From positions 29,448 to 93,447 of the forward strand of contig JBDKSP010000077.1 in assembly GCA_039680575.1 (NCBI GenBank): a stretch of 64,000 nt of DNA, given 5' to 3'. A program made the translations under genes and the position numbers. The notes below the pieces were generated by a model. The model searched no databases. It was not told the origin of the DNA and worked only from the letters and a program-made list of their open reading frames with translations. Source of the stretch: Armatimonadota bacterium (GTDB taxonomy: Bacteria; Armatimonadota; UBA5829; DTLH01). This document shows, piece after piece, positions 9,286 to 56,832 of the stretch (positions are counted from its first letter, which is position 1; each line of letters opens with the position of its first letter).

Positions 9286-10146
9286 TTAGGGCTTCACCAC
9301 GATCTTCGCGAGAATCTCCGGTCGGGTGATGCCTTGGCCAAGCTCCGACCAGACGAGCCATCCGGTCTTGAAGCGGGTCTTCTGCTCGATTGCCTCCGTC
9401 TTCAGTGACTCCCGGATCGGCATCTTCCCGACCTCGTCATCCGGAACGATAAGGATCTCGTTGATGTCAGCCGACGCCGTGAGAAGAATCCCGCCGGTGC
9501 CGTAGTTCTTGATGACACCCTTCGTGCGCAGCTCGGCTCTCGTCTCCGGGTCGAGGTCCCAGTCCCTCATATCGTTGAAGCGGCGTCCCCGCATCACGAT
9601 GTACTTCACCGAGAGTTCCAGATCCTCAATGATGGAGATGGCCTCGTTAAGAGCCGTGTCAGTGAGCTTGCCACCGGTGACCTCTATTGTGTTCGCCGCC
9701 GGCACTGCCGCCGAGAGCACTGTGAGTGTTCTTCGGTCGATTTCCTTCCGTATCTCGTCGGCTGAGGACGTCTGGATGTCCATCAGGGTCCCGATGTTGC
9801 CGTTCTTCAGGACCGAGACATCAACCATAGGGGTCGAGTGGATCCTGTTTGTCGGGAACTCCACCTCGTCCTGGCCCAGTTCCTGTTCTCTTGCCTCTCC
9901 CTCTGTGCTGATCCAGTAAGCCTTCACCTTCGGCTTCTTCTGGTAGACGGGCCGCTCGCCTTTCGGGAGGGTGTGCTGCGTGAGGAGAAGCGAAGTGATT
10001 TCCTTCCGCTTTATCTCCTGCTCGATGGGTGCCGCTATCGCTGCTGCGAGGGCGCGCATCCCTTCGGGAGACTCCAAGGCCTCGCTCATGAGGCGAGCCA
10101 TTGTCTCCATGTATTCCTGGCTGTGAATGTTTGTCTTGTTCTTCAA
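9286..10146 (-). CDS. Major capsid protein (probable HK97 fold)
   Basis: 286 aa; follows the protease/scaffold and decoration genes; AYWISTEGE motif. Confidence 0.75.
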   Translation of the reverse strand: MKNKTNIHSQEYMETMARLMSEALESPEGMRALAAAIAAPIEQEIKRKEITSLLLTQHTLPKGERPVYQKKPKVKAYWISTEGEAREQELGQDEVEFPTNRIHSTPMVDVSVLKNGNIGTLMDIQTSSADEIRKEIDRRTLTVLSAAVPAANTIEVTGGKLTDTALNEAISIIEDLELSVKYIVMRGRRFNDMRDWDLDPETRAELRTKGVIKNYGTGGILLTASADINEILIVPDDEVGKMPIRESLKTEAIEQKTRFKTGWLVWSELGQGITRPEILAKIVVKP

Positions 10147-10156
10147 GCGCTCCCTC

Positions 10157-10519
10157 CTATATCAAGAGCAGAAACTTCAGCGTCCCGCTTGCCGAGGATA
10201 TGGCGCGGGCCACGACTACGTCGCCTACACCGGCACCGGCAGTAAGCTTTCCCGCAGCAGATACCTTCAGGTCGTCCCCGGCGTTGATGACGCCTTCAAA
10301 GACGTCGGTTTCATAGATGCCTCCCATGCAGAAGATTCCGGGCATGTCGCCTGCCTTGTAGTCCTTGATGAGGATGCCGAAGCTCTTCGCGGTCGGATCG
10401 GTGTTAACGGCAAAGAGGTCGTTTCCGGCAAGCTTCACGAACTGGCCGCACGACCCCGCGCCCTGCATGTAGCCGTCGCCATAGGCGAGGCCGCGATGGT
10501 TAGGATTGAGATATGCCAA
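10157..10519 (-). CDS. Capsid decoration/cement protein
   Basis: Gly-rich 120 aa (AGDDLKVSAAGKL) between scaffold and capsid genes. Confidence 0.6.
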   Translation of the reverse strand: MAYLNPNHRGLAYGDGYMQGAGSCGQFVKLAGNDLFAVNTDPTAKSFGILIKDYKAGDMPGIFCMGGIYETDVFEGVINAGDDLKVSAAGKLTAGAGVGDVVVARAISSASGTLKFLLLI

Positions 10520-10536: not shown

Positions 10537-13500
10537 CTAGTTCTCGGAGTGGTCCCCGACGCGTTCGCGGTACGCAGTCATGAAGCCGTCGCGGAGCTTG
10601 TCCTCAAGGCTCATCTTCCTGTCGTCCACGTCCGCAGGCCGTACACCAGCCGCAGTCCTCATGGGCGGCGCAGAAGACGCGGACGCGTTCGGCTTCTCTG
10701 CTGATCCCTTGTCCTCAGACTTTTCGGAGCAGCCGCATCCGGACTTCGTCTGGATGGCCCGCTCATACGCGGCTTCCGTCGCGGCGAAGGCATCGTCGGA
10801 AAGCTCCGCGAGTCTCCCAAGCTCCTTCTCCCGCTCATCGTCGGACGCAAACGGCATGCCGGACTTCTCGAGCTTTACGATGAGCTTGCCTGCGCGGGTC
10901 TTGTTGGCAGCAGCCTTGCTTTCCGCTTGGAGGTCCTGGACCTGCTTCTGGAGGTCGAGAACCTGCTGTTTCAGGTCCTTGTTCTCCGCCTCAAGCTCCC
11001 TTATGCGGGCCTTGTCGTCTACTGGGGGTGCGCCGCCTCCACCTGGTGGTGCGGCTTTCTTGGCAGCATCCTCGTGCTGCTCATCAGTCTTCTCTTTCTC
11101 TTTATCTTCCAATGAGTCGCCTCCTGAAGGTGATTGATCGGTCTGCCTCTCTGAGGCGACCTGAGTGATACGTGCGTTTTCGTCCGCCCCTTTTCGGTCG
11201 AGGAGTCCGAGGCCGGTGAACGTGACTCCGTGCAGGATCTCAAAGACCGGCTTCCCTTGATACTCCGCGCCTTTGAACTTCCGAAGGTGTACGCAGTAGT
11301 CGTTCTTGTTTGAGACGGTCTTCCCGCAGATGGAGCACTCACCGGCCTCGTAGTCGCACTCCATGGAAACCTGGGCGATGATGCCGCGTTTCATGAGCTT
11401 GTAGGCGAGCGCGGCTGTAGGGGAGTCGGCCGTATATAGCTCGCCTGCGCACTCGACGCGTCCACCGGTCTCGTCCTCCACGAACTCGGAGGAGACGATC
11501 CCGCCTACGATGTCCGTGAGGTCCTGGGAGTGCTTGAGGTCAATCTTCTTGTTGATAGCCGTCGTGTAGCGGGCCGCAAGTTCGTCGGGAGTGAAATGGT
11601 CCCCGTTCCTGTTGGTCCCGGCCCGGCACATGATGAACGCAAACTGCGGATCTGCGGCGTTCTGGTTAAGATCAATAGCCGACGCCGAAAGCGCACTGCC
11701 CGAGAGAGCAACATCCACCGGAATGGATGTATGGCAGTTGGCGGCAAGCGAAGCCGCAGCCGATTTGGGAGCCGACCTTCCGCCGGATGCTATGAAGAGC
11801 AACTCGCGGGCGTTCTTTCCGCCGCCTCCGTCACCGGAGACGATGTTATACTCGATGTCCATTCCCTTGATCCGCACCTGCCCGAAGCGATCCGCGAAGA
11901 TATCGTGGATCTCCTTCTCCGTCGGGTACGCTCTGTCACGGTAGGACATGATGACGGTCTTGTACTTGCCGTGCGACTCGGAGGCGAGGCTGTCGATAAG
12001 GGAGTGCATACTTTCCTTGTCGTAAGCAGTTCTCGACTTGTAGCTTCGCCTGCCGTCATCGAGGAGTTCCTTATCCGCCCAGCAGTTCATAAGCCCCTCG
12101 ATGAAGTGCATCGCGCCTTCATAGTCGTTGCTGTTGAACTCCGTTACGTACGGAGGGTCGAGATACAGCACGTCCGCGCCGAACTTTCTAACCGCTTCAA
12201 CAGCGTCACCCCGATAGGCCTTGCACTCCACACCACTGTCGAACACGAGCCTGTTCAGCTGGCTTGCGTAACGCTTGAAGCTCTCGACCATCCTGGAGAC
12301 GGGCACGTTCTTAAGCTGGCTTTCCTGGAGACCCGCCATAGCGTCAAGGTCTGCTCTCGTGTTGCGCTTCGAGCGGTGGAACTGCCCGAATGCGCTTTTG
12401 GCCTTCACCGTGTTGCCGAGAGCCGCCAGGGCGAGGTCCTTCTTGTAGCCGGAGAGCTTCTGGATGTTCGCCCAGACCTGGTCCAGCCAGAAGAGGACCT
12501 TCTTCGTGTAGTAGTAGCCGTAGAAGTTGTCGACGATGAAGGTACCGGCATCCGGATTTGGAGCCAGTATCCGCTCAATATCTTCATCCGAGAGCGTCTC
12601 ATGCGAGTTCTCCACGACAGCTCGGGCAACGTGGTATGGAAAGAGCAGAAGGTCGTTCGCAATGACCTTCATGCCCCTGCGCTTCATGTGGTAAGCCACG
12701 TTCGCCCCGCCGGAGAATGCATCGAGGAACGTCTTCGCGTCCTTCGGCACTTGCCGCTCGATCCAGCCGAGCATCATATACTTGTTGCCCATGAACCCCG
12801 TGACCCGGACCGGGTCCATCCCAGCCTGGCATGAGAGTAGATCGAGGTCATCACCATACGGCGCATCAGCGAGTGCAGCCATGTTCTCTTCTATGCGCGC
12901 AGTGACCTCGGGTGAACAGTCGTCTTCATCATCGGCCTGCGCCGATCGTCCGGATTTCGTGCAAACGAAAAGCCGCTCCATGGCGACTGAGTTCTCGGAA
13001 TGCTTAGATGAGATATGGTACTTGTGCTCCATCGACTGCATCCGGCTCTCTTTGCCGTTTGCAGAGATGATGTCTTTCATCTCCGACTCGTTCGGGTAGG
13101 CGTGGTCGCGGTAGGAGATGAGCCAGTTCGGGATGTGCTTGGCGCTTGTGAGAAACGTCGTGAAGAACTCACCGGCATTTGCCTTGGTGACCGTCTTATG
13201 GTCCGTCTCGTAGTGATGGGTCTTTGAGTCCGAGACGATCTTCAGGCCGTCCCAATAGGTCATCAGACCCTCGACGAAATGATAGCTCTTCTCGTAGTTC
13301 GTCGTCGAAAACTCGGTCGCGTAAGGCGGGTCGAAGTAGGCGAGGTCCACTTTTGCCGCCGGAAGCGCCTCGTTGATGTCTTTGTTCTCTGCCTTGCACT
13401 CCTTACCGGAGTCAAAGATGAGCGCGTTGATGCGGGCGATATTGTCCGCAAACCGCTCCTTGAACTCCTCGGGCGTGTCCTGGCGCTTCCCGTAGTCTGT

Positions 13501-14076
13501 GGATGAGGAAAAGTGGCCGAAGCCGCCCTTGCCGGACATGCAGGTCTTCCCGAGAGCGAAGAGAGCGATGTCCTTCTTGTACCCCTCGAGGTTATCAGCG
13601 TTTGCCCTAATCTGATCGATGACGCCGTGCACTCCCTTGGCGAAGAAAATCCCTTTGAAGTTGTCACGGACAAAGGTCCCAGCCTTTGGATTATCCGCAA
13701 GGAGTGCCGAGAGTTCATCTTCAGATATCCGGACATTCTTGTTCTCTACGATGGCCCGGGCAGCGTGGTAGCTGTAGCGAAGCCTATCGTTGGCGATGAC
13801 CGAGAGACCCTTGGTCTTGTACATATAGGCGACGACCCCGGAGCCTGAGAATGCATCGATAACCGAATCCACTCCCTCAGGAGTGTGCTTCCAGATCCAG
13901 TCGATTAGCTTCTGCTTACTTCCGATATAGTTGGTTATGTATTTCGGACGCTTGTCTTCCGGCAGCTCCTCCGTGACAAGCTCTGCGCCCTCGGCAACAA
14001 GCTCGTCGAGGCGGCGGGACGCGTCTGTCTCAAGAAGAAATGCCAGCCGGTCGCGGTCCGTGACAAATAGCTGCAT
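10537..14076 (-). CDS. Tandem D12-class (Dam/FokI-like) DNA adenine methyltransferase fused to a prohead protease-like domain and coiled-coil scaffold
   Basis: Two MTase domains (NYIGSK/DAFSGSG/DPPY and FMGNK/DAFSGGA/DPPY), then NRNGD.F...IDLKH...VSMEC...CSIC...C.H...GAD..A.I and a heptad-rich acidic/basic tail. Confidence 0.8.
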   Translation of the reverse strand: MQLFVTDRDRLAFLLETDASRRLDELVAEGAELVTEELPEDKRPKYITNYIGSKQKLIDWIWKHTPEGVDSVIDAFSGSGVVAYMYKTKGLSVIANDRLRYSYHAARAIVENKNVRISEDELSALLADNPKAGTFVRDNFKGIFFAKGVHGVIDQIRANADNLEGYKKDIALFALGKTCMSGKGGFGHFSSSTDYGKRQDTPEEFKERFADNIARINALIFDSGKECKAENKDINEALPAAKVDLAYFDPPYATEFSTTNYEKSYHFVEGLMTYWDGLKIVSDSKTHHYETDHKTVTKANAGEFFTTFLTSAKHIPNWLISYRDHAYPNESEMKDIISANGKESRMQSMEHKYHISSKHSENSVAMERLFVCTKSGRSAQADDEDDCSPEVTARIEENMAALADAPYGDDLDLLSCQAGMDPVRVTGFMGNKYMMLGWIERQVPKDAKTFLDAFSGGANVAYHMKRRGMKVIANDLLLFPYHVARAVVENSHETLSDEDIERILAPNPDAGTFIVDNFYGYYYTKKVLFWLDQVWANIQKLSGYKKDLALAALGNTVKAKSAFGQFHRSKRNTRADLDAMAGLQESQLKNVPVSRMVESFKRYASQLNRLVFDSGVECKAYRGDAVEAVRKFGADVLYLDPPYVTEFNSNDYEGAMHFIEGLMNCWADKELLDDGRRSYKSRTAYDKESMHSLIDSLASESHGKYKTVIMSYRDRAYPTEKEIHDIFADRFGQVRIKGMDIEYNIVSGDGGGGKNARELLFIASGGRSAPKSAAASLAANCHTSIPVDVALSGSALSASAIDLNQNAADPQFAFIMCRAGTNRNGDHFTPDELAARYTTAINKKIDLKHSQDLTDIVGGIVSSEFVEDETGGRVECAGELYTADSPTAALAYKLMKRGIIAQVSMECDYEAGECSICGKTVSNKNDYCVHLRKFKGAEYQGKPVFEILHGVTFTGLGLLDRKGADENARITQVASERQTDQSPSGGDSLEDKEKEKTDEQHEDAAKKAAPPGGGGAPPVDDKARIRELEAENKDLKQQVLDLQKQVQDLQAESKAAANKTRAGKLIVKLEKSGMPFASDDEREKELGRLAELSDDAFAATEAAYERAIQTKSGCGCSEKSEDKGSAEKPNASASSAPPMRTAAGVRPADVDDRKMSLEDKLRDGFMTAYRERVGDHSEN

Positions 14077-14119
14077 GAATCACTCCGACACTGGTGAGGC
14101 CCACTATATGGCCTTCTAC

Positions 14120-14153
14120 TTGATATGTACTTCTGGAAACCAGGAAGTGTCGG
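14120..14153 (-). promoter_or_regulatory. Putative phage-specific promoter, copy 1 (head/tail operon)
   Basis: CCGACA-N15-AAGTACATATCAA, about 44 nt upstream of the 14076 start. Confidence 0.7.
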
Positions 14154-14577
14154 AGGATACCAGACGTGGTCTTTGATCGGAGTTGGGAGGAGCATCCCAG
14201 CCCCTAGAGGGGTCTGGTTCAACCTCCACTATACGCAAAGTTGCTCGACATGCAGTCAGGCGTGGTCTGCCCAAGGACTACCGGATGGCACAACCATTCG
14301 TGGGAATGGACACTTCTTGGGAGTTTACGCGAATGAAAGCTGCGGGCATCGAAACCCAGAAGAAACAGGCAGGCTGGCCCCATTTGTATCTTCCGGCATG
14401 GATAGAAATACCCGCAGATGTCAACAAATGTGGGTGATGCTATCATGCGAACAGTGATGCGGCGTGAAGTGGCGGTCGAGTGCCGGATAAGTGCGCGATT
14501 GAACGCTTACCACAAGAGCCTGCCCCATTGTCCTGACCGCTCCACGCATTCCCACAGTACGCTGTATAATGGCACTG

Positions 14578-15651
14578 ATGGAACGAACACGCATTTACCC
14601 AATCTTGCAGGCTGTTCTGGCCGCGGTTCTGTTTGGCGCAAGCACTCCATTTGCGAAGCTGCTTCTGGGCAGTGTGCATCCACTGGCGTTGGCGGGCTTG
14701 CTGTATCTTGGAAGTGGCATCGGCTCGGCACTACTCATGCTGGCGCGACGCTTGATGCGCCAGAGGGATCAGGCAGAAGCACCTCTGACACGGAGTGACC
14801 TACCGTGGCTTTTTGGAGCCGTCGCCGCAGGAGGAGTGGCTGCACCTATCACACTGATGCTGAGCCTGAAGGTAACAGCTGCCGCGACTGCATCTCTGTT
14901 GCTCAACTTCGAGGGGGTGGCGACAGTCCTCATAGCTGTCTGGTTTCTCCGAGAAGCCGTCGGACGACGTGTCTGGGCGGCCGCAGCGTGCGTCACTGTC
15001 GCAGGTGCATTGCTCTCTGTCGATCTCTCAGGCAGATGGGGTATCTCGCCTGGAGCCATCGGGGTAGTAGTAGCCTGCATCTTCTGGGGAATAGACAACA
15101 ACCTGACGCGCAATATCTCCGCGAAAGACCCTCTCCAGATAGTGGCAGCTAAGGGATTGTCTGCGGGGCTGTTTTCGCTCTCGCTGGCGACAGTGATCGG
15201 ACAGCGACTTCCCACTCTCGGAAGTGCGGTGACGGCCATGCTCCTTGGCTTTGTGAGCTATGGAGCCAGCATTATGCTCTTTGTTCTTGCCTTGCGCGGC
15301 CTGGGGGCGGCGAGGACGAGTTCGTATTTCGGAGCGGCTCCGTTCATAGGTGCCATGCTGTCTTTCGTTCTGTTCAGAATGCTGCCGAATGCTTTCTTTG
15401 CCCTGTCGATCCCGTTCATGGTGGTCGGAGTTGCCCTGCTTCTCACTGAGGAACACGCACACGCACACCAACACCTCGCCATAGAGCATGAGCACCGTCA
15501 TCGACACGATGGGCTGCACCACGCACATTCGCACGAAGAAGAGGTGAGGGCAGAGGAGATCCATTCGCACCGACATCGACACGAAGGGAATCGACATTCA
15601 CATCCTCACGCGCCGGACATTCATCATCGCCATGAGCACGAATCGCCGTAG
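14578..15651 (+). CDS. EamA/DMT family transporter with His-rich C-terminal tail
   Basis: About 10 hydrophobic helices, LFGASTP and WGIDNNLTR motifs, His-rich tail; TATAAT 7 nt before the ATG at 14578 (ORF track start is 14569). Confidence 0.88.
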   Translation: MERTRIYPILQAVLAAVLFGASTPFAKLLLGSVHPLALAGLLYLGSGIGSALLMLARRLMRQRDQAEAPLTRSDLPWLFGAVAAGGVAAPITLMLSLKVTAAATASLLLNFEGVATVLIAVWFLREAVGRRVWAAAACVTVAGALLSVDLSGRWGISPGAIGVVVACIFWGIDNNLTRNISAKDPLQIVAAKGLSAGLFSLSLATVIGQRLPTLGSAVTAMLLGFVSYGASIMLFVLALRGLGAARTSSYFGAAPFIGAMLSFVLFRMLPNAFFALSIPFMVVGVALLLTEEHAHAHQHLAIEHEHRHRHDGLHHAHSHEEEVRAEEIHSHRHRHEGNRHSHPHAPDIHHRHEHESP

Positions 15652-15696: not shown

Positions 15697-16032
15697 TCAT
15701 TGACGCCCAAGGCCAGCAAGCACTCTCGTCGCGCACTCTTCCGCCGTGACAAACTCCTCAGTTTCTGAAATCTCCCCGCACATCCCGCGATACGGCGACA
15801 TCGCCGCCCGGTGATACTCCGGGAAGTCCTCCGGCAGACTCTTGACGCCGTTCTCCACCAGCCGGTTGATGACCCAGTCTGCTTCTTCCTGAGCGTCATC
15901 ATTCCCCGGCAGATACTCCATCAGGATATCGAGCCCCGGCCCGGGCCCCTGCACCCAGACGCCGATTGGCTCATAGTGCGGGCTGGTGTCTCGATCCCGA
16001 AGAGCATATTCAACCATATATCTCAGCTTCAT
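15697..16032 (-). CDS. Hypothetical protein, candidate immunity protein 2
   Basis: ATGA-coupled to the upstream gene; start MKLRYMVEY. Confidence 0.6.
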   Translation of the reverse strand: MKLRYMVEYALRDRDTSPHYEPIGVWVQGPGPGLDILMEYLPGNDDAQEEADWVINRLVENGVKSLPEDFPEYHRAAMSPYRGMCGEISETEEFVTAEECATRVLAGLGRQ

Positions 16033-16505
16033 TCCCACGTCTCCGCTATCCGCACGTGCTCCTCCATAAGCTCTAGGTCTATCTCCTCGAACATCTGCTG
16101 GTTCGCTGCCTTGTAGCTCTGCCAAGTCCTCCAATCCAACACCATGTCGTGCTCTGAAACATCCATGATGAGTTCGATGTGGAACCTGCGGCCCCGGTCA
16201 TCAGTCAGATCGAGGAGGTAGGTATCATCCCGGCTCCAAGCGACGACCTTTATCGTGTGGGAATACTGCCAGCCGTTGTGGTAGCCCGCGGACTTGAAGA
16301 GGAGCCAGAAGTCGATCTTGGTCACGTTGCCCGAACTATCGAAATGTGGCGAAACTCGTGTAACGATGTAGCTGTCGATTAGGCCAAACTCAAGCGGTTC
16401 GTCTCTACCTTCCCGCATATCCATCCAGGAGCCGTCCCTGTTGAACGCATCAAAGAGCGACTGTAGCTTTGCTTTTTCCTCTGCTATGAAGTCTTTCATC
16501 ATCAC
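16029..16505 (-). CDS. Hypothetical protein, candidate immunity protein 1
   Basis: Acidic 158 aa; overlaps the stop of the MuF gene. Confidence 0.65.
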   Translation of the reverse strand: MMMKDFIAEEKAKLQSLFDAFNRDGSWMDMREGRDEPLEFGLIDSYIVTRVSPHFDSSGNVTKIDFWLLFKSAGYHNGWQYSHTIKVVAWSRDDTYLLDLTDDRGRRFHIELIMDVSEHDMVLDWRTWQSYKAANQQMFEEIDLELMEEHVRIAETWE

Positions 16506-19500
16506 CTCGTAAGGACTACTTCCTCAACCTTGCGTCCATCCGGCAGCACCGATACCCCGTGCTTTCTGAACACGTCGAGGACGCTTCTTCTCTCACTCTC
16601 GCTCCCGACAACGATGTGCTCCACGTTATCGAGGAGAGTCACTGAGTACTTGAGGATGGTCTCGTTGCTCGAGTTGCGGGAGAAGTCCTTCCAGGACCTG
16701 GGATCGGAACCACGGTGCTGGACCACATAGTCGTCCTTCACCTTGCCGAAAGCATCGTGGTCGTAGCTTATCGCGTCCATTCGCCTAAGGAGCCGCTTCT
16801 TGAAGTAGATGCCTGTGTTTCTGTCTCCGCCAGAGACGGGCGACTTCCTGATCCTGGTGAAGACATAGGTCGCGCCGCCGCTATTCATATCCTCCTCCGG
16901 CGACATCCCTCCAGGAGCCACACCAGACCGCAGTTTCTCAACCGTGCTTATCATCGCGCCGTTGTTCTCTAACGCCGTATCGATGAAGGAACTCATGGAG
17001 TTGCCGTTGGTAAGACTATGGTATAGGGTGTAGCCTTTCATCTCCTTCTCAAGGTCCGCGTCGGAGAGATCGAAACGATACTGGTGCCGGTAGCCGCCGG
17101 CGAGCGACTTGTCCTTGAACCCGAGCTGATACTCACCTACGGGGTCATAACCAGACATCCGTGTGATGTCGGACACACCAAGCCGCTTCTCCCAGTACGA
17201 CCGCATCGCCTGGACCCGCTCGGGCTTACTCGCTCCCCGCTGGTCGAGCCCTGAGAGCATCTGGGCGTAATCATTCTCACGGTCGGCTTTGCTTAGATAC
17301 GCCTGTTTCGTCAGATACATCAGCTCTGCATCCTCGGAGGTGGCGACGTTCGCTTTCAGCCCGAGCTTCTCCACGTGCTGAAGCGCCCGGTCCAGGCTCT
17401 TCGGATCGGGGCGCTCCGGGACGACCAGCTCAAACTCGCCCTGCTGGGCGTAGTGGTTCTTGTCAGACCAGGGACGATACACCGCCCGGACACCGTCACC
17501 GAAGTCTATCTCATACTGCTCGCCTGCCTTCATCGTGCGGCCCCGGAAAAAGGATGTGTTGTTGGCGTCCTCCCGTTCGACCGACAACTCGCCTTTCTTC
17601 AGGGCGCGCTTGGTCAAAAGCACCTTGCTCTTGCGGACCGTGAAGTCGACCTTCGCCTCCTTCTTCTTCGGAGAAGCGTGCTTCTTCAGATACGCCGAGA
17701 ACATCTCGGGGATCGGCTTTCTCTCCTTTGCAGCCTGCTTAACCTGCTCTATCCAGCCGATGTAACTCTCTGCCATCTCGCGCACGTCCGGGTCCGCCGA
17801 CTTCGCAAGCTCTCGAAGAGCGTCCAAGTGCTTTGCGGCTCTATCGATGGTGGACTGGTTGTAAGCACCGTCTCCTGCGTGGTGGTTGATGGTCTTCACC
17901 GCACCGAGGATATCGTCCGAGAAGGAATCCTCGGGAAGCGTCTGCCCGACCTTCGTTGCCGTCACCTGCCGATCCGCTTTCCTAAGCTGCGGCAGGATCT
18001 TCGACTCTGCTTCGGGTCGGACTTTCATCTTGATCACGGTCCGGGTCTGCCCGTTCAGAGTTTCCGTGAAGATGAGCGCGTTCTGGTCCTCGATATCGCT
18101 CTCGTCAATCGGGAGAGCCTTCCCTTGCCATCCCAGCACCCGTGCCTCCTCGATAATCTGCTCCTCTGCCTTCCCAATCCGGTCCACTGCTTGCGGTTCG
18201 ACTGCATCCTCAAATCGGAAGCCAGGCTTCTTCAGGATGTCCGCATAGAAGCCCTCGAAGTTGCTTCTCAGGCTGTGCTTCCTTGCGATGGCCAGATCAT
18301 AGAAGGCCTTCTGCTGTGCCGCATTTCCCTTGAACCTGCCCTCCACATAAGGTCTAAGTAGCGAGAGGTAATCATCGTCAGATATCCGCTCGACCTCCCG
18401 GATGTAACGCAGCGTCACCGAGGGATCGACCTTTACCTTACCCTGCTTTGCCGCACGGAAGAGGGTGTTGTAGAACGGCTCACTCTCTCCGCAGGCGGCA
18501 TTCGGGTGGTAGTCTATCGAGAGCTTGTCTGACCCTAAAAACTTGAAAAGCTGTCCCTTGTCGATGCCATAAACGTGGCCGTCTTTCCCTCTGATGAACT
18601 GCTTTGAGTGTCCATCGTGGTTTGAGATGAGCCAGTCGATGACATGCTCCCTCTGGACCTGGGTGATCTCATCCGCTGAAAGCTCCGCGATATCGAAGCT
18701 GGAGAAGTCATACTTCGAGGCAAGGTCGGTGCGCCATTTCTGGATGGAGCCTGTGCGGCTGTTCAGGCTGATGACTCTGACCTCAATAGCGTCAGGGTCA
18801 ATGAGCCTGCCGATTTTGTATGCCGCCTCTTCACCTTGGGCGATGAAGTCATCACTGGTCTTTCCGAGCGGCTTGAACATCCACTTCTCGCCGGCCTCAT
18901 CGATCCAGAACTCTTTCTCATGCGCGCCGCCGACACTTGCCTTGCCGTCAAACTTGAACTGCTCAGGCTTACCGGTGGCTCCCCAGGCGACGTCCACTGA
19001 CTCGAACTCCGAACCCTTCTTCGCAAATGTGTTCGAAGAGGCGACCGTGACAGGTTGCTGGATGGGCTGTGCTGGCTGAGGCTTGGGTTTGGCGGGTGCT
19101 GCAGTCGGCGTCTTCGCCAGGTGCTTCTCGGCCCATTTCGCGTGCTTTGCCTCAATACCGTCTGTAGCTTTCGAGACCTTTGCCTGGTCGGTCTCCGTGA
19201 AGACAGCCACCAACTCATCCTTTGACGCCCACTGCCAGTGCTTGACCTTCGTCTCTTTCGCCAGCGACTTCAGGTCTCCGACTTTCATCGCCGATATCTG
19301 CTGCTGGAACGCGAGCTTCTTTAGCGCGACTTCTTTCGCGTGCGCCTCAAGGACAGATGCAGGAAGTCCGGAGCCCTTGGCTAGTTCCGTTTCAGCCGAT
19401 TTCACCGAATCTAGGAAACCGGAGTAGCTGGAAGGCGATGATGGCAGCACGACCTGTGCCGTGGCATCCTTCAGTGCTTGCTCGGCCTTCTTCAGGGCCT

Positions 19501-21094
19501 GCTGTTTCGCCGCATCAAGAGCCTGCTGCTTTGCCTGCTCGGCCATCTGCTGACCGGCGGACTTCTGAAGCGCCTTGACGAGCTGCTCCTTGTTTTTGAG
19601 GGGTGGAATCCCGAACTTGGTCTTAGCAGCGATGAGAGTCTTGCCGGAATAGTTGTAGTGATCGATGTGCGGCTCAAGCGCGTCCAGCATCTCGATCACC
19701 TCGCTCTTTGTGAGGTTCAACGACACCCCGTGCTGCTTCGCAATATCCTTCAGCTGGACCATCGTAAGACCCGACAGGTCCGCCTGAGGCGATGCTGCCT
19801 TTGCCGCTTCCTCCAAGAGCTTCGCCTGCTTTACCGCCGCTTGTTTATCAGCCAGAAGCTTCGCCAGATCGTCCTTGCTTCGGAGGGCCGCGATGTTGTA
19901 CTGCTTGACCTTGGACATGAGGGCAGATCCGGAGAGATCCATGTGATGGACACCCGGCTCCGCCGCGTCGAGGAGCTTTATGAAGTCCGCCTTGGTGCGT
20001 GCGATGGAGATGCCGTTCTGCTTGGCGAGCGTCTGGAGCTGCTTTACCGTGAGCGCTGAGAGGTCCGAGATCTGACCCGACTCAAACGCGTCCTTGAGCT
20101 TCTTCTCTTCCTCGGCCTTCTGCTTGGCCTCTGCATCAATTGCCTGTGGCGGAAGGATACACGCTTTGGTTTCGCTGGCTGCACTAGCTCCCAGTTCGCC
20201 GCCACAGATGACCAACGGCCACGCGACGACGCTCGTGCATCGGCAGTTGGGATGCGCCGGCTGACTGGGGAAGTGGTCGGTGTCAAAAACCTTGCCGTCA
20301 AGACCACCGCAGACCGGGCAGGTCCGCTCATCCTCCATCGTCAGCCACTCGAGCCTCGAGACTCCGACTTGGCTGTGGAACTTGATGCGGCCCTGGTTGT
20401 GCGCGCGGAGCACTTCCGTCCGGGCAATCATCTCCATCCGGTACTGCGCCTTCGTGAACACCTTGCTCCCGGCGTGGCGGAAACTCTCCTTGTCCTCGAT
20501 CACGATCCCCATTTCCCGGACGATGTCCCGGACGCTCTTTCCGCTCGTTATCCCGGAGAGGATGGTCCGCTTGATGCCGGAGGCAAGTTCCGTGTGCACG
20601 TCCCCGAGAAGCACAAGGTTGTAGTTTGCCATGAAGTCGAGCGCGTCGGTGTCGATAAGCGTGAAGACTGATGTGGTGAGCTTATCGATTCCCTGTGGTG
20701 TGAGATCCTTGTAGAATGGCATCTGCGCCGATGCGAACTCTTCGATGCCTCGATAGACGCCGGAGCGGAATGATGCTTGCCCAGCCTTCCTGAACATCAG
20801 GCTCTGCTCCCGCTTAAGCGCCTTCATCGCCTCCGCAATCTCGGCGTCCAGCTTCTCCAGACTATTCACCACCGCAAGTTTGTTCTCGGGAAGCGACCCA
20901 ACGCTGCCATAGCCCAGAAGTGCCTTATGGACCTGATCCTGTGCGGACTTGAGCCCCCCGGTAAGCTGGAACACGACCTGTTCTGCGTACAGGTCCCGAG
21001 CCATCAGGCTCTTGTCCGTGGCTTCTCGTATTGCCTGGGCCTGCGCGGTGGTGTCGGCAATCGCACACATCATCGGTGTGGCGTCTGCGGTCAC
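16502..21094 (-). CDS. Minor head protein (MuF/SPP1 gp7) with long extension: SAP/HeH-like repeats, HipA/PI3K-like kinase, putative ART-like domain
   Basis: IARTE...DERTCPVC...HPNCRC MuF signature; LxxLTxxQLxxxAKxxG repeats; WMFKP...E...DWLISNHDGH...IDKG; LYH...GGATYVFTR...NE; GTG start overlaps the portal stop. Confidence 0.82.
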   Translation of the reverse strand: MTADATPMMCAIADTTAQAQAIREATDKSLMARDLYAEQVVFQLTGGLKSAQDQVHKALLGYGSVGSLPENKLAVVNSLEKLDAEIAEAMKALKREQSLMFRKAGQASFRSGVYRGIEEFASAQMPFYKDLTPQGIDKLTTSVFTLIDTDALDFMANYNLVLLGDVHTELASGIKRTILSGITSGKSVRDIVREMGIVIEDKESFRHAGSKVFTKAQYRMEMIARTEVLRAHNQGRIKFHSQVGVSRLEWLTMEDERTCPVCGGLDGKVFDTDHFPSQPAHPNCRCTSVVAWPLVICGGELGASAASETKACILPPQAIDAEAKQKAEEEKKLKDAFESGQISDLSALTVKQLQTLAKQNGISIARTKADFIKLLDAAEPGVHHMDLSGSALMSKVKQYNIAALRSKDDLAKLLADKQAAVKQAKLLEEAAKAASPQADLSGLTMVQLKDIAKQHGVSLNLTKSEVIEMLDALEPHIDHYNYSGKTLIAAKTKFGIPPLKNKEQLVKALQKSAGQQMAEQAKQQALDAAKQQALKKAEQALKDATAQVVLPSSPSSYSGFLDSVKSAETELAKGSGLPASVLEAHAKEVALKKLAFQQQISAMKVGDLKSLAKETKVKHWQWASKDELVAVFTETDQAKVSKATDGIEAKHAKWAEKHLAKTPTAAPAKPKPQPAQPIQQPVTVASSNTFAKKGSEFESVDVAWGATGKPEQFKFDGKASVGGAHEKEFWIDEAGEKWMFKPLGKTSDDFIAQGEEAAYKIGRLIDPDAIEVRVISLNSRTGSIQKWRTDLASKYDFSSFDIAELSADEITQVQREHVIDWLISNHDGHSKQFIRGKDGHVYGIDKGQLFKFLGSDKLSIDYHPNAACGESEPFYNTLFRAAKQGKVKVDPSVTLRYIREVERISDDDYLSLLRPYVEGRFKGNAAQQKAFYDLAIARKHSLRSNFEGFYADILKKPGFRFEDAVEPQAVDRIGKAEEQIIEEARVLGWQGKALPIDESDIEDQNALIFTETLNGQTRTVIKMKVRPEAESKILPQLRKADRQVTATKVGQTLPEDSFSDDILGAVKTINHHAGDGAYNQSTIDRAAKHLDALRELAKSADPDVREMAESYIGWIEQVKQAAKERKPIPEMFSAYLKKHASPKKKEAKVDFTVRKSKVLLTKRALKKGELSVEREDANNTSFFRGRTMKAGEQYEIDFGDGVRAVYRPWSDKNHYAQQGEFELVVPERPDPKSLDRALQHVEKLGLKANVATSEDAELMYLTKQAYLSKADRENDYAQMLSGLDQRGASKPERVQAMRSYWEKRLGVSDITRMSGYDPVGEYQLGFKDKSLAGGYRHQYRFDLSDADLEKEMKGYTLYHSLTNGNSMSSFIDTALENNGAMISTVEKLRSGVAPGGMSPEEDMNSGGATYVFTRIRKSPVSGGDRNTGIYFKKRLLRRMDAISYDHDAFGKVKDDYVVQHRGSDPRSWKDFSRNSSNETILKYSVTLLDNVEHIVVGSESERRSVLDVFRKHGVSVLPDGRKVEEVVLTR

Positions 21095-22578
21095 TCGACC
21101 CTCCCGCGCCTGATGAACCTGCATGCCGGACTGTCGAAGGTGACATCGGCCCCGGTAACGCCGCACTTGTTCCTGTCGCCCTCGAAGAAACCGCAGGTGT
21201 CACATACCTCGTCAGCGTAAGCTGAAGCCTGTGAGGAAGGCCGGTTCTTCGCGGGATCGAGTCCGAGCATTTCCTGAGCTGCCTCGATGCTCATTATGCC
21301 GGCGACGACCATATCGACGATTGGTTTCACCTGCTTCTCATCGAGGATGTCCACGGACTTCTCTTCGCTCTCCCGGTTAGCCTCCTCGATGTCCGGGTCG
21401 AGGTCCATCTTAATCTGAAGGCTGGACCGGCTGATGAGCTTCCTGTCGTAGAGCTCAATCAAGAGCTTCTTTACGTCCACTGCGTCCGTCGGGTCAAGGT
21501 CGTTGAAGACAAACTGAACGTTCTTCCCGGAGTGACCTGATAACTCTAGCCAGTCGCAGTAGATCCAGTCGAGGATTGTTCGTGCCGCGTGCTTTATCTC
21601 CCGGATCATGATGATCATCTTCTGCATAGAGACAGAGGCTGTTGCGAAGTTGGGACCATCTCCCGCGACAAGAGAGCGGGACAGTCCGAGCGCGATCACG
21701 ATGTCTTCCTTGACCTCCTTTACCTTGTCCTCGACATTCAGGACCTGTCCTTCGGTGCCGTGGGTCTCCACCGTCACGTAGAAAGGAACGACCAGGCCGC
21801 TTTTCAGGTCCATCTTGTTCACCATGTCGCGGACGCTCTCAAGCATCTTCTGGTCGGGCATCACCATCTTGGCTCCGTATGCCCCTCCCACCTTTAACAG
21901 CCGAAAGGGCGTCGCCCAGCGCTTGGCTATCGCCTTTTCTGCCCGCCGATAGTCACGCAGGAGTTCGATTGACTCGAAGGCGGGAAGGACGAGCGAGTTG
22001 CCGCGCGGAGAGAACTCAGGTGCATCCCATTTCAGGTGTATGGTCTGCTCGACCGGAAGTTCGAGCCCTTCTCCGGCTGCAGGTGTATCCTCGGGATACT
22101 GCCTTACCTCGATAAGCTCTCCGTGAGCATACTTGACTTTGATAGAGACGGGGTTTACGCAGGTGAGGTCTTCGATGCCCTTGCCGTCTTTCGTGAAGCG
22201 TTTGAACCCAACGCAGTCGCCCTTAACAAGTAGCTGGAGGATCATATCCTTCACGAACTCAGAGACACCCAACCGGTCGGCAAGCGTGTTCGCTTCTTCC
22301 TTCACTCCCTCATCGTCACTCGTGATCTTTATCTCGTCCCCCACAGCGAACGTCCGCCAGGAGTTGATGCAGTTCTTGACGAGCGGCTCCTCGACGTAAT
22401 ACTCCCACGCACGCCTTGCCCGGTCTTCCCATGACTCGGGAATAGCGCAGGTGGCATGAAGACTGCCAAATGCCGATGAGTCGAGGGCAGCGGCAGTTGC
22501 CATTGGGGAGACCACTACTGCGTATGCATGGTTCTCCTCAGATGAGAACCCTTGAGCTTCCATGTTATTGCTGTCCAA
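21091..22578 (-). CDS. Portal protein
   Basis: Between terminase and MuF; IHLK...RGxS, NFATASV motifs; C-terminal CxxC..C..C. Confidence 0.8.
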   Translation of the reverse strand: MDSNNMEAQGFSSEENHAYAVVVSPMATAAALDSSAFGSLHATCAIPESWEDRARRAWEYYVEEPLVKNCINSWRTFAVGDEIKITSDDEGVKEEANTLADRLGVSEFVKDMILQLLVKGDCVGFKRFTKDGKGIEDLTCVNPVSIKVKYAHGELIEVRQYPEDTPAAGEGLELPVEQTIHLKWDAPEFSPRGNSLVLPAFESIELLRDYRRAEKAIAKRWATPFRLLKVGGAYGAKMVMPDQKMLESVRDMVNKMDLKSGLVVPFYVTVETHGTEGQVLNVEDKVKEVKEDIVIALGLSRSLVAGDGPNFATASVSMQKMIIMIREIKHAARTILDWIYCDWLELSGHSGKNVQFVFNDLDPTDAVDVKKLLIELYDRKLISRSSLQIKMDLDPDIEEANRESEEKSVDILDEKQVKPIVDMVVAGIMSIEAAQEMLGLDPAKNRPSSQASAYADEVCDTCGFFEGDRNKCGVTGADVTFDSPACRFIRRGRVE

Positions 22579-30148: not shown

Positions 30149-33100
30149 ATGTCTGAAGATGCGGATCTTATGCATAGCCTACTGGACCGAGAGATCAGCA
30201 CGGAGTCAGCTGATGAATTCGGTCACAGACACTTTGCAAAGGCACTTCAGAGCCTTATTGAGTTGCCGAACAAACCGCCATATAGCATAGGTCTTCTGGG
30301 CAAGTGGGGCACAGGCAAGAGCTCAATCAAAGAGCTGTACCGCGCTTGTTTGGAGGATGATGCCGCAAGATCCAAAGCAATAAAGCCAATCACTTTCAAC
30401 GCCTGGAGGCACGGCGGTGAAGATATTAAGCGGGCTCTATTGCGGCACGTGTTTATGGAATTGAACGGCAATGAGGATGAGTTGCTTGATGCGCTTTCTC
30501 GACACGTCCAGACCGTGATACCGCAGCACAAGAGCTTCCGAATGGTCTTGCGCGACGTGGCGTTGAGGATACCTATCGCGCTTAGTTTGCTGATTATAGC
30601 AATATTGGTCAGCGCGTCAGCAACTTGGTACCTGAAGTGGCTACTAAATCTATCTGAAAAGCCAACATTAACACTTATCGCAGGTGCTATGGGGGTTGCC
30701 ATTACATTTCTGATCGGTAAACTCCTCGAGATTGGTAATTCTACGAACATTACCCGCATAGAGCCGCCCAGTTCTACAGCGGAAGATTACGAACGTTTCC
30801 TTCTAAAGCAGATGCATACTTTTAAGGACGCGAACGGTGCGGATTGTACCAGACTTGTTGTGTTCGTGGACGATCTAGATCGTCTCGGACCTGAAGAGAT
30901 GGTGCGTGGATTGGATGCGATTCGCACTTTTATGGAGATTCCAACAAATCGAATACCTGCCGGGCTAGGTGTAGTATTTGTGATATCGTGTGACGAAGAA
31001 CGCGTGGCAAAGGTTTTGTCGGACCGTGACTGTAAACCAGGCGCCAGCCTGCCGGGCACAGTGTCTACACTCGGTGATGCTCACCGTTTCTTGGACCGCA
31101 TTTTTCAATTTCGGCTCGATATACCGCCATTTCCTAAGCGCGACATGCGCACCTACGCAAAGAAACGACTTTGCCAAGATTTGCCTGAAATCGCTGCCGA
31201 ACTTAATAAGCGAGGTGTGCTCGAAGAGGTCGTCAGCAGATTGATACATGTCGGAGTGCAGAGCCCGAGAAATGCAGTCCAACTTCTGAATATGTTTGCT
31301 CAGTGTTGGTGGCTGGCTAAGACGCGTGAAAGAGATGGATCGGGAACCGAGCGAACTGGTGGTCTACGGCAAGGAGCTGTCACCAGTCATCCAATCACCC
31401 TAGCGGTCGTCTGTGTACTTCGTGTTGACTTTCCCGACTTCTATGAAGATCTTCTGCAAGAACCAGAGTTAGTAGATTCATTCACTAAAGTCTGCATTCG
31501 CGGAGGAGCTTTCGGCGAGCAAGCAGAATCAGTACAAAGAATCTTAAGGAAGTATTTCAATCCTGAAACAAATGATTTAACGAACGAAGACTATCGTCCA
31601 CTGCTGCGCTATATCAACAGCCTTCAGGAACTCGTATGGCCCTCATCCAAGATGCCACTGCTGCTATTATCTCAAGACCCGCTGACTCGTAAGGTTGGTG
31701 ATAGGGGCCCGAGGCTCAATGATGCGCTTGTTTCTGCAGATCATCGTGAGGTGCTGAGAATTCTCGGTCATGATAAGGATGCCAAACCATTATCTCAGGA
31801 TGATATTGACCAACTTCACGAAGTTATGGAGGACTTCATAGAAGACGAATCAATCGACCGACGTAGAAATGCGGATGTAGCAATCGCAGCTCTATTAGAC
31901 CGATTGCCGGAAAAACACTCGGACAAGCTGCTGATACGTCTTATCCGCCGTTTGATTCAATACCCTGAACTGCGATGGAGGCTGGGCATTGTCAAGATAG
32001 GTCATGTCCTTAGTCGAGGGCACACTGGTGACCGAAGAGAATTGGCACGCATACTAGTAGATAGTGTACTCAAAACGGAAGGTGAGATCGGTTTTCGACG
32101 TACAGTTGAGAATGCTCTAACACTAGATGAGGCCATATCAGTGGCACGAGAAACGTGCAGCATAGTATTAGAAGTCCGTGCGAAGGACGGTCTGGACAAT
32201 CAGTCAGAGACGGCCTTACTCAACTGGCTCGAAAAGCGGCATGTTATGGTCGGTGGAGAAGAAGGCCATCTGCAAATCCAGGATTTGGAGCAATGGATGT
32301 CCGAGTACGAAGACGGTTTACTGTTACCGATGGGGGCAAGCTACACTCGTTCATTGCTGGAAGAACTGGATGCCGGACACCCAGTTGAAAACGATGCTAT
32401 AGATCGGGCTCGGTGTGTGTTTGAGATGCTTCGAGGAGGGGATGCATTTGAGCAAGCGGAGCTTTGGGCACAGCTCTGTCGGTACGTTGCCGTGGTTCAA
32501 CCACAAGCAGTTACACTCGCGCATGAATGTGCAAGCAAGAACGTGGGAAATGCGGACGAGAAAACGATCTCGGCGTTCACGAAATCATTTGCCGACCGTA
32601 TAGCTAGGCATGCCGTCAAGAATCAAAAGCGCTACGCAATCGACGACTTAACGCAGGGTCATACGCTGCTCAATCTTATCAGGCAGCGACCAGAATCGCT
32701 CGATGAAGAATGCCGGCAGGCACTAATTCCACTTGCTAAGTCATGGGGAACGACTGCAGAAAAAGCCAATATGGCGATAGGCATTCTTGATGTGTTGTGT
32801 GAGCTAGACAAGCGAAGCAGCCAAATAATATCGGATTGGATCGAAAGGCTATTGAACGACTTGCCTGAGCCATGTCTTGACTGGCTAAGCCAGCATTTCA
32901 CGGACAAGCTTACTAATAGTCAGCGCACTGGCATAACGGACCAGATGCGCGTCCTCTGTGGCCGAGATGATATCTCGAAGGACGAAGGCAAGCGGTATTG
33001 CCGAATACTCAAGACAATGTCGCCTGAGTCCATCAAGTCAAAGCCTATGCAGGATCATCTTGCATTTCTTCTTGACCAGATTGGGGAGCGCTGTATCAGT

Positions 33101-34162
33101 CTTGATGGATTCTTCTATCGTGTATTCGAGGCCGTACCACCATTACTATCTAGCATTCCGTCGACAATTGTTGGGCCAATGCTGCAAAAGGTGTTTGATG
33201 GCCTGATTAATGAGCATGTTGCGTACGGTTGGGCTCATTATTGGATGGTGTCCTACTGGCCGCTTCCAAGTGATAAGCTGCAACCGTATAACCCACAGCA
33301 TATCTTCGAACAAGGGCCCGTCGTGCTTGGCCAGTTTCCGGCTGACAAATGGGATTGGGCCGTTCATATTGTGACTTCTATGGAGAAGATGATGGAGCGT
33401 GGGGTTGTTAGCAACGAGAATGCCGGGTCTTTAGTTGAGGCTGCTTGCCTTCTGTGGCCTTACAAGCAGGAAAAGGCTCTTAACACCATAACCGGGCAGG
33501 ACGTTTCGCCTGATGTTCGCAAGATCGCCGGTCTTATGAACGGTATTGACTTCACCAACGAGGAACAACGTGACCGTTTGTGTGAAGCTTGGCGGCATTT
33601 TGCAGGGCTGATCACTGAAGACGAAAGCCGCTTGGTAGCGAAGTCCATTCTACAAAGTGCTCCTTTAGGAACGGAGCGTGACCCAGACTTGGCCCTTCAG
33701 GTGTGGGTGGACGAGAACCAAGTTCATCAATCGATTTTGCTTGATGGTTTGCTGCGTGATCTCGATCTCAATGATGACCAACGACAGAGAGTCTGGTTGC
33801 AGACTGAACGCCTTGCTCCTCATGTGGGTCTGAGCGTCTTCATTACTGTTCTTCCAGGGTTGCTTGGACTGCAGGACATTCCGAACACAACGAAGGCAGT
33901 GATTGAAGCACAGACGACGTTGACCAGATTGTGTGTAAATGACAGGGATCGAATTAAACTCGGAACGGCGCTGCTAGATGCCTTCTTGCGTACATCATCT
34001 TTAGACTTAAAGAATAAGCTGGCTCTATGGATAAAGGAGGCCAAGGCCGCTTCCTCGCTTAACCAGATGCAAAAATTGGGTAATCCGACTAAGGATGATA
34101 TTCAGATACTTAAGAGTTACTTTCCTGGTTCTCGCGCACTTAAGAAGTACAAGAACATATAA
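30149..34162 (+). CDS. KAP-family P-loop NTPase with two TM helices and long helical C-terminus
   Basis: GLLGKWGTGKSS, FNAWRH, two TM segments inside the NTPase, VFVDDLDR, SPR. Confidence 0.88.
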   Translation: MSEDADLMHSLLDREISTESADEFGHRHFAKALQSLIELPNKPPYSIGLLGKWGTGKSSIKELYRACLEDDAARSKAIKPITFNAWRHGGEDIKRALLRHVFMELNGNEDELLDALSRHVQTVIPQHKSFRMVLRDVALRIPIALSLLIIAILVSASATWYLKWLLNLSEKPTLTLIAGAMGVAITFLIGKLLEIGNSTNITRIEPPSSTAEDYERFLLKQMHTFKDANGADCTRLVVFVDDLDRLGPEEMVRGLDAIRTFMEIPTNRIPAGLGVVFVISCDEERVAKVLSDRDCKPGASLPGTVSTLGDAHRFLDRIFQFRLDIPPFPKRDMRTYAKKRLCQDLPEIAAELNKRGVLEEVVSRLIHVGVQSPRNAVQLLNMFAQCWWLAKTRERDGSGTERTGGLRQGAVTSHPITLAVVCVLRVDFPDFYEDLLQEPELVDSFTKVCIRGGAFGEQAESVQRILRKYFNPETNDLTNEDYRPLLRYINSLQELVWPSSKMPLLLLSQDPLTRKVGDRGPRLNDALVSADHREVLRILGHDKDAKPLSQDDIDQLHEVMEDFIEDESIDRRRNADVAIAALLDRLPEKHSDKLLIRLIRRLIQYPELRWRLGIVKIGHVLSRGHTGDRRELARILVDSVLKTEGEIGFRRTVENALTLDEAISVARETCSIVLEVRAKDGLDNQSETALLNWLEKRHVMVGGEEGHLQIQDLEQWMSEYEDGLLLPMGASYTRSLLEELDAGHPVENDAIDRARCVFEMLRGGDAFEQAELWAQLCRYVAVVQPQAVTLAHECASKNVGNADEKTISAFTKSFADRIARHAVKNQKRYAIDDLTQGHTLLNLIRQRPESLDEECRQALIPLAKSWGTTAEKANMAIGILDVLCELDKRSSQIISDWIERLLNDLPEPCLDWLSQHFTDKLTNSQRTGITDQMRVLCGRDDISKDEGKRYCRILKTMSPESIKSKPMQDHLAFLLDQIGERCISLDGFFYRVFEAVPPLLSSIPSTIVGPMLQKVFDGLINEHVAYGWAHYWMVSYWPLPSDKLQPYNPQHIFEQGPVVLGQFPADKWDWAVHIVTSMEKMMERGVVSNENAGSLVEAACLLWPYKQEKALNTITGQDVSPDVRKIAGLMNGIDFTNEEQRDRLCEAWRHFAGLITEDESRLVAKSILQSAPLGTERDPDLALQVWVDENQVHQSILLDGLLRDLDLNDDQRQRVWLQTERLAPHVGLSVFITVLPGLLGLQDIPNTTKAVIEAQTTLTRLCVNDRDRIKLGTALLDAFLRTSSLDLKNKLALWIKEAKAASSLNQMQKLGNPTKDDIQILKSYFPGSRALKKYKNI

Positions 34163-34249
34163 AGGCAGCGTGCTATGGCACGGCGATGGATTTGTCTACT
34201 CAGACCAGATAAAGCCTGCTACACAATGATGAGGTCGTGGCGTTACCTC

Positions 34250-48174: not shown

Positions 48175-48235
48175 GGCGGAGGTCGTTGTGGGTGTCGCCA
48201 GTTTGGCGGCATCGCAATGCCTCCGCCCTTTTTTT
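48175..48235 (+). terminator. Long G-U-rich hairpin plus T-tract upstream of the sigma gene (terminator/attenuator)
   Basis: GGCGGAGG..GTTGTG..GTGTCGCC / GGCGGCAT..CGCAAT..CCTCCGCC followed by T7. Confidence 0.65.
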
Positions 48236-56823: not shown

Positions 56824-56832
56824 TGATACTCC

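Follow-up and report, generated by a model that had tools for sequence, protein, structure and literature searches.

Phage lambda (C/Nu3), phage Mu (I/Z) and herpesviruses (UL26/UL26.5) have nested protease/scaffold genes, and the prohead protease of phage T4, gp21, cuts head proteins at a short shared motif. To our knowledge, the well-known cases of antirestriction carried in the virion come from just a few phages, P1 and T4 among them, and there the cargo uses targeting signals. Here we describe a prophage gene in a 64,000-nucleotide stretch of an Armatimonadota genome (the window: GenBank assembly GCA_039680575.1, contig JBDKSP010000077.1, positions 29,448 to 93,447). Its 1,179-amino-acid (aa) product, P0001, joins two DNA methyltransferases (MTases) to a C-terminal part that is predicted, from sequence profiles and a structural model, to be an HK97-like prohead protease and scaffold. 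As in the nested genes, protease and scaffold share one frame, with an internal scaffold start and a candidate cut before a short C-terminal helix, but here 40–85 kDa of enzyme cargo stands in front of the protease. By analogy, the gene would work like a nested protease/scaffold gene with DarB-like cargo, and neither as a DarB nor as a type IIS methylase. A literature search that reached few subscription papers returned no description of a D12 methylase–protease–scaffold fusion, and the fusion is real, conserved and apparently undescribed.

The closest described cargo is DarB of phage P1, a head protein with an adenine methylase that protects injected DNA, according to three reports (PMC5512222, PMC9024508, PMC12810830); Dar proteins are ejected with the genome (PMC12810830) and DarB is present in about 40 copies (PMC9024508). 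P0001 resembles DarB as a predicted head protein that bears a domain of adenine-methylase type, with the proposed role of shielding incoming DNA from restriction. However, DarB is described in those reports as a protein of its own, of 250 kDa and with a SWI2/SNF2 ATPase, whose loading depends on an N-terminal signal and helper proteins, whereas P0001 would be loaded by covalent fusion to the maturation protease and has no ATPase; Pfam and NCBIfam scans found no helicase (SWI2/SNF2) domain, so P0001 is not a DarB. In the accessible text of Iyer et al. 2017 (PMC5512222), assemblin-like peptidases lie at the C-termini of polyvalent proteins and are thought to process them during assembly. By architecture and synteny P0001 has that arrangement, since it is encoded in a phage late operon and joins conflict enzymes to an assemblin-like peptidase; the same text names no D12 methylase–protease–scaffold fusion, its methylase being of the DarB type.

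For the protease domain, the nearest relatives in cultured phages (28–34%) are phage G gp19 and Gordonia phage Pupper gp94 / Stormageddon gp13, in which the protease is at or near the N-terminus with no methylase in front. A paper that names phage G gp19 as a head maturation protease is inconsistent on its detection in virions (PMC12484599). In SPN3US, a single short motif marks where the prohead protease cuts the portal, capsid and ejection proteins as well as itself (PMC10052503), and this system, with gp245, differs in its AXE motif, its T4-type protease and its separately encoded cargo.

The gene is a single open frame of 1,179 codons without interruption, as the first-pass annotation of this DNA had reported, and begins with an ATG at 14076 behind a GGAG Shine–Dalgarno sequence. 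PHROG 27806 (798 columns, annotated just as DNA methyltransferase) spans one MTase and the whole C-terminal part as one family. The parts of the product are as follows; tags are five-residue candidate cleavage sites.

10537..14076, minus strand: leader–MT1–MT2–protease–scaffold polyprotein (P0001), 1,179 aa (open reading frame; PHROG 27806)
13948..14076, minus strand: acidic N-terminal leader, aa 1–43, with candidate tags LETDA (aa 15–19) and LVAEG (aa 26–30) (alignment; predicted local distance difference test, pLDDT, <50 over aa 17–53)
12961..13947, minus strand: MT1, alpha-class (D12-like) DNA amino-methyltransferase, aa 44–372 (Pfam, motifs, Foldseek; ratio of nonsynonymous to synonymous differences, pN/pS, 0.14)
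12808..12960, minus strand: MT1–MT2 linker, aa 373–423, with candidate tags MAALA (aa 399–403) and LSCQA (aa 414–418) (alignment)
11782..12807, minus strand: MT2, second alpha-class methyltransferase, aa 424–765, about 38% identical to MT1 (Pfam, motifs, Foldseek, pN/pS 0.14)
11155..11652, minus strand: predicted HK97-like prohead protease, aa 809–974, with His849 at 11530–11532 and Ser904 at 11365–11367 (profile alignment, model)
10537..11125, minus strand: predicted nested scaffold gene, 191 aa, with AGGAGG at 11120–11125 and a TTG start at 11112 (aa 989) (Shine–Dalgarno and start scan)

Because the fusion is conserved, the idea that the long frame is an artefact of assembly or annotation is already refuted, and we put its chance at practically nil. 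The same fusion occurs at 135 other loci, complete genomes of cultured strains included, and the MT1/MT2, MT2/protease and protease/scaffold junctions are all spanned, with zero differences, by contigs of run X1 (possibly the source sample); both checks had been proposed in the first-pass annotation. To collect these loci we queried with only the protease domain and took the 80 best of 146 viral matches and the 80 best of 136 genomic ones; the resulting 160 are the closest relatives, partly redundant, which we reduced to 38 representatives below 85% identity. The fusion is complete at 135/160 loci, 81 with one MTase (MT1–protease–scaffold) and 54 with two (45 as MT1–insert–MT2–protease–scaffold and 9 like the window), and the remaining 25 are broken or cut by contig ends. 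A natural split between MTase and protease, sought in 7 of these 25 non-standard loci, was found in none; six have frameshifts or stops and L139 is rearranged. Of the six, L155 has a stop at the junction, and its decoration and capsid genes are broken as well.

Record titles of the matching loci name Armatimonadota, Desulfobacterota, Acidobacteriota, Nitrospirota, Planctomycetota, Chloroflexota, Hydrogenedentota and others, so that the design is found in prophages of many bacterial groups, cultured anaerobes included. Cultured environmental hosts of the fusion include Desulfosarcina alkanivorans PL12, D. widdelii PP31 and Desulfobulbus rhabdoformis DSM 8777. Armatimonadota relatives are nearest among the listed genomic matches (protease identity up to 90%), and in an even sample of the host phylum 6/201 genomes match. 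A search with residues 780–1179 gave 438 proteins among 8,000 candidates of 648–2,064 aa, a length filter that leaves out MTase-free forms, and all 120 of the 438 that were listed have PF02086. A profile search of 50%-identity clusters reached 1,553 proteins at E 0.001; among 32 of the 150 listed cluster representatives, picked for scanning as longer top matches, 16 have PF02086, 2 have a truncated MTase (BLAST) and 14 have none, and in most weaker cluster matches the protease is near the N-terminus. The MTase-free representatives and these weaker matches make the fusion one branch of a larger protease family.

Both methyltransferase domains are complete and of D12 type, as first annotated. 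Pfam MethyltransfD12 (PF02086) has two matches, with 157.5 bits where the cut-off is 22, and both domains have the D12/alpha-class order of motif I (FxGxG), target-recognition region and motif IV DPPY: DAFSGSG at aa 74–80 and DPPY at aa 249–252 in MT1, DAFSGG at aa 452–457 and DPPY at aa 640–643 in MT2. Motif I of MT1 is kept in 38/38 representatives and its strict DPPY context in 35/38, the MT2 motifs are kept in 23/23, and the residues of the S-adenosylmethionine (SAM)-binding and DPPY motifs are invariant across MT1 and MT2 paralogues. Over 55 pairs, median pN/pS is 0.14 for MT1, 0.14 for MT2 and 0.12 for the protease, compared with 0.30–0.38 for the linkers and scaffold. Foldseek assigns the predicted model to the Dam fold (EcoDam E 1e-6, DpnM, T4Dam), with M.CbeI at rank 4; in sequence searches of the PDB, Dam matches were sub-threshold. 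Intact motifs under purifying selection make both MTases look active. Non-catalytic domains that merely bind DNA or fill space as core proteins would fit the outcome of the k-mer analysis, in which avoidance in the prophage equals that of the host and indicates no target site, but we consider them very improbable: the SAM-binding and DPPY residues are invariant in both paralogues and the MTase pN/pS is as low as that of the protease.

The methylated base is probably adenine, but this is not certain because M.CbeI has DPPY and a D12 annotation yet makes N4-methylcytosine (PMC3425538). At about 30% identity, the nearest annotated cellular relatives are single enzymes encoded next to DpnII-family endonucleases and the second half of the Geobacillus protein GKP08. 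GKP08 yields a dam-like pattern (PMC6098629), and because about 30% identity is too distant, we transferred no target sequence from these relatives.

The first-pass annotation took MT1 and MT2 for a FokI-type pair that methylates both strands, each domain modifying one strand of one asymmetric site as in FokI/AlwI-type systems, a proposal that the sequence evidence does not support. Two paralogous D12 domains do lie in tandem in one chain, and among annotated cellular proteins MT1 is most similar (32%) to the second half of the GKP08 tandem type II methylase, which adjoins an AlwI-family endonuclease. However, GKP08 differs in its cellular restriction–modification partner, its Dam-like first domain and its lack of a capsid link, and such cellular tandem proteins join a Dam-like domain to an MT1/MT2-like one. 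Pairing is not obligate, since 81 single forms stand against 54 double ones and an MT2-only form (P0138) exists. The recognition region of MT1 is equally alike between single and double forms (identity 0.73) and among single forms (0.73). A quick unrooted tree places MT1 and MT2 in one group apart from five cellular-type enzymes (SH-like approximate likelihood ratio test, SH-aLRT, 99), with MT2 as its own clade (100) and several stand-alone proteins also in the MT1/MT2 group. No endonuclease gene lies alongside, the neighbours being an EamA transporter gene and the decoration and capsid genes. Because single-MTase forms dominate, the two-strand idea is poorly supported, and we regard it as quite improbable.

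Sequence evidence supports the first annotation of the C-terminal part as protease and scaffold. Direct matches to protease families are weak (TIGR01543, E 5e-4; PF04586, E 0.003; phrog_18299, E 4e-4, the last matched by 16/34 family members), and comparison of the single sequence with HK97 gp4 gave a probability of just 3%. A profile of 122 sequences over aa 809–974, set against an 11-sequence HK97 gp4/S78 profile, gave an hhalign probability of 94.8% (E 5e-8). That alignment matches His849 and Ser904 to the conserved His and Ser that are catalytic in HK97 gp4; His849 is kept in 121/122 and Ser904 in 120/122 sequences of the deep alignment, and both in 38/38 close representatives. A zinc-knuckle-like Cys/His insert (CxxC...CxH, aa 914–930) interrupts the domain.

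The full-length model has a mean pLDDT of 75.5, with 71–94 per block over aa 811–970, and its protease part resembles phage G gp19 and predicted COG3740, XkdF and DUF2213 proteases (for example, root-mean-square deviation 3.1 over 168 columns); the match to gp19, which has the same Cys/His insert, reaches E 1.8e-14 in Foldseek. A model of the protease alone from 38 close sequences was unusable for Foldseek (pLDDT 46.6). PDB structure searches with the full-length model listed just methyltransferases, with no solved protease among the matches because MTases filled the lists, and PDB sequence searches gave no protease match. Behind the protease the model predicts a long helix (aa 1021–1071) and then a short C-terminal helix.

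A scan of in-frame starts for Shine–Dalgarno strength found one strongly conserved internal start, at aa 989 (37/38, median −10.3 kcal/mol), which in the window consists of AGGAGG, 7 nucleotides and TTG. The scaffold is therefore likely to be made separately, in excess, from this start, as judged from the sequence. Separate translation of the protease would have undercut the fusion as first annotated; between the MTases and the protease we found no conserved start, only a scattered strong candidate in 3/36 parsed linkers, so the protease is likely made only with MTases attached.

The fusion gene occupies the position described in the first-pass annotation, directly before the decoration and capsid genes. 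Terminase, portal and 1,554-aa MuF genes lie upstream here, and a decoration-like gene, the major capsid gene and a contractile tail downstream; the decoration-like and major-capsid genes directly follow the 3′ end of the fusion gene in 138/138 loci with enough flank.

10157..10519, minus strand: decoration/cement-like protein gene (weak PF23982 and PF22758 matches)
9286..10146, minus strand: major capsid protein gene (phrog_2522, E 5e-88)

In the alignment, a five-residue pattern, [LM]-x-[ASTC]-x-[AG], occurs at every domain junction, with Ala at 92% of last positions. Counted in 37 parsed sequences (L081 was dropped), with expectations from shuffling, it is present in the leader of 37/37 (77 observed, 12.9 expected), the MT1–MT2 linker of 22/22 (59 versus 11.2), the MTase–protease linker of 37/37 (55 versus 13.1) and before the scaffold tail of 30/31 (30 versus 2.1). 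The protease core has it in 0/37 (0 versus 19.1) and the scaffold body in 1/31 (1 versus 21.5). Within the MT1 core it occurs in 33/37 (37 versus 34.1), nearly always as one helix ending in Gly, and Ala-ending tags there number 2 in 38 sequences against 21.8 expected. The MT2 core has it in 22/22 (75 versus 26.9), and a length-variable loop of the MT2 recognition region carries it, sometimes twice, in 22/23 sequences (28 observed, 1.8 expected). In P0001, low-confidence segments (pLDDT <50) contain or border seven of the eight tags (aa 15, 26, 399, 414, 577, 796 and 1139). The tags not listed above, including those of two other head proteins, are:

12334..12348, minus strand: tag LDAMA, aa 577–581, in the length-variable loop of the MT2 target-recognition region (22/23; pLDDT <50 over aa 575–582)
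11677..11691, minus strand: tag LSASA, aa 796–800, just before the protease (37/37 linkers; 24/32 distant representatives)
10648..10662, minus strand: tag MRTAA, aa 1139–1143, before the conserved C-terminal scaffold helix (30/31; 24/32 distant representatives)
22489..22503, minus strand: tag MATAA near the portal N-terminus (27/27 distinct portal N-termini)
20180..20194, minus strand: tag LGASA between the MuF domain and an extension of about 1,230 aa (22/22 long forms, 0/8 short)

Because the motif was defined on these linkers, we tested it in other sequences. Among 34 cluster representatives at 41–75% identity, with Ala required, it is found before the protease in 24/32 (33 versus 6.7, 4.9-fold), before the tail in 24/32 (26 versus 3.8, 6.8-fold) and in the scaffold body in 10/32 (10 versus 22.6). 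It is also present in 27/27 portal N-termini (47 versus 8.1) and 17/25 portal C-termini (20 versus 6.2), and in 22/22 long forms of MuF it directly follows the MuF domain (23 versus 7.0), whereas eight short forms end there without it. This distribution, at domain junctions, ahead of the scaffold tail, in the variable MT2 loop, at the portal N-terminus and after the MuF domain in long forms, is new here. We propose from these patterns that the [LM]-x-[ASTC]-x-A tag is likely the cleavage code of the protease; the side of the tag that is cut would follow by analogy.

The interpretation given in the first-pass annotation is partly supported, at the level of sequence: by a C-terminal protease/scaffold, a protease without a conserved start of its own and a candidate self-cleavage code flanking each MTase; the FokI pair is not supported. 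We favour, with moderate confidence, a polyprotein that is built into the procapsid and cuts itself at the tags, after which the MTases, once freed, would remain inside the head and protect the phage genome from host restriction by methylating it. Assembly of the full-length protein with free scaffold would rest on the C-terminus that both share, on the model of nested protease/scaffold genes, and the protease would cut after the Ala of the tag, trimming portal, MuF, scaffold and itself. Released MT1 (~42 kDa) would be too large to exit with scaffold fragments and so would be retained in the head, most likely to be ejected with the DNA like P1 Dar proteins, although it may also act during packaging. 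MT2 would be an add-on with a second specificity, and its recognition loop would be nicked in maturation, giving pieces of ~18 and ~24 kDa. If this reading is true, a folded enzyme of ~40 kDa can be packaged by fusion to the prohead protease, and an essential morphogenesis enzyme as carrier would guarantee loading in every head. The candidate code also gives exact and cheap predictions, namely fragment ends, one-residue mutants and other processed head proteins.

Several observations weigh against processing and retention in the head. The protease scores fall under curated cut-offs (18 versus 21 bits in Pfam; 20 versus 59 bits in NCBIfam). The 4- to 14-fold excess of the tag over shuffles in leader, linkers and tail front consists of ratios, not p-values, because the motif, which is Ala-rich, was defined from these linkers and the sequences are related. 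The tag also occurs in 10/33 distant protease cores (11 versus 8.1), in a confidently folded region of P0001 (MT2 aa 663), five times in the capsid protein (0.6 expected), where some copies are surely buried, and three times each in the terminase and an unrelated ATPase. Distant MT cores contain tags, so that the tag-freedom of MT1 fails in distant relatives, the distant MT2-like domains of P0128 and P0138 are without the loop tag, and the tag inside MT2 could mean destruction. As 14/32 cluster representatives are without an MTase, the MTase is dispensable for assembly. Finally, N-terminal propeptides of SPN3US are mostly cleared from the head (PMC10052503).

Some of these points would also suit an arrangement in which the fusion sets just the timing and dose of MTases that act in the cytoplasm on replicated DNA, with the tags serving to remove them in maturation. 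The cytoplasm offers free access to SAM and DNA, relatives without an MTase exist, a conserved tag lies inside the MT2 recognition region, and the SPN3US propeptides are cut at several sites and largely exit the head (PMC10052503). Yet a separate late gene would serve equally, and the fusion is kept at 135/160 loci; MT1 is a folded domain of ~330 aa with tags on both sides and almost none inside in close relatives; and the same tag parts MuF from its extension, such extensions having been proposed as delivered effectors by Iyer et al. (PMC5512222). We consider cytoplasmic action unlikely.

Expression of the fusion gene bears on a further possibility. A repeated promoter-like box lies upstream of it, as the first-pass annotation had pointed out.

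14118..14132, minus strand: repeated promoter/operator-like box AAGTACATATCAAGT upstream of the fusion gene, function inferred (4 copies in the window versus 0.03 expected)

The box is real, and a related bipartite motif is found upstream in 26/37 relatives compared with 1/370 coding windows, but box AAGTACATATCAAGT is not specific to late genes because other copies lie outside the head operon. Further AAGTACATATCAA copies are at 27937, 45192 and 48925, near other phage gene clusters, and a sigma-70 region 2-like gene is at 48217–48894. The Shine–Dalgarno sequence of the fusion gene pairs with the upstream promoter-like box (14066–14157, minus strand) in a hairpin of −30.2 kcal/mol (z −2.6). 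It pairs more than 35 nucleotides upstream in 29/38 relatives, compared with 6–15 in shuffles and 4/37 for the scaffold start, and its median pairing falls from 0.8 to 0.5 when the RNA begins after the box. Read-through transcripts are thus likely silenced by the predicted blocking of the ribosome-binding site. Comparable silencing of read-through transcripts occurs in some T4 late genes.

This predicted blocking in read-through RNA fits a variant, not exclusive of the favoured reading, in which MTases released in the procapsid methylate the incoming DNA there and are never ejected, a confinement that would spare the host from a promiscuous enzyme. Methylation before entry should also protect better than a race with restriction enzymes. 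However, DNA is packaged quickly and densely, SAM has to diffuse into the head, and the enzyme may be active before cleavage; we hold action confined to the capsid to be somewhat unlikely. A more elaborate idea, which seems doubtful to us, is that the methylases are activated by the protease and the capsid serves as a private methylation chamber: precursors would be silent and switched on by cutting only in the procapsid, so that virion DNA alone is marked before the enzymes are injected. The acidic leader and, in MT2, the loop across the DNA-recognition surface would hold broad-specificity methylases off until the protease cuts both, and injection would take place together with a MuF-borne effector freed by the same five-residue code.

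Other tag-bearing proteins and cargo domains accompany these genes. Three tags fall within the first 35 residues of the capsid protein (aa 13, 19 and 30), whose N-terminus may also be trimmed or may simply be a conserved helix. The MuF gene (16502–21166, minus strand; 1,554 aa) has SAP/Rho_N-like repeats and a weak HipA-like kinase match in its extension; long and short forms both occur among its relatives, and it is followed by a pair of small conserved genes (15697–16505). A domain of ~100 aa (W..T.NEIRYR.RDP..F...SFR), usually with a tag in front, occurs in many relatives between MT1 and MT2, before the protease, or twice (for example, L001:2612-3046); it has no Pfam or NCBIfam match, and Atlas gave just unnamed viral clusters, under 0.9. 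In the distant relatives P0129, P0135 and P0151, other unidentified domains, also tag-flanked, take the cargo position before the protease.

Within the head operon, on the opposite strand, lies a gene for an EamA-family transporter with a His-rich tail (14569–15651, plus strand), at a spot that is variable among relatives. The prophage also contains a KAP NTPase and an HATPase/HsdR-N-like gene (30149–36577), and a type I restriction–modification operon adjoins it at 54146–59202 (minus strand).

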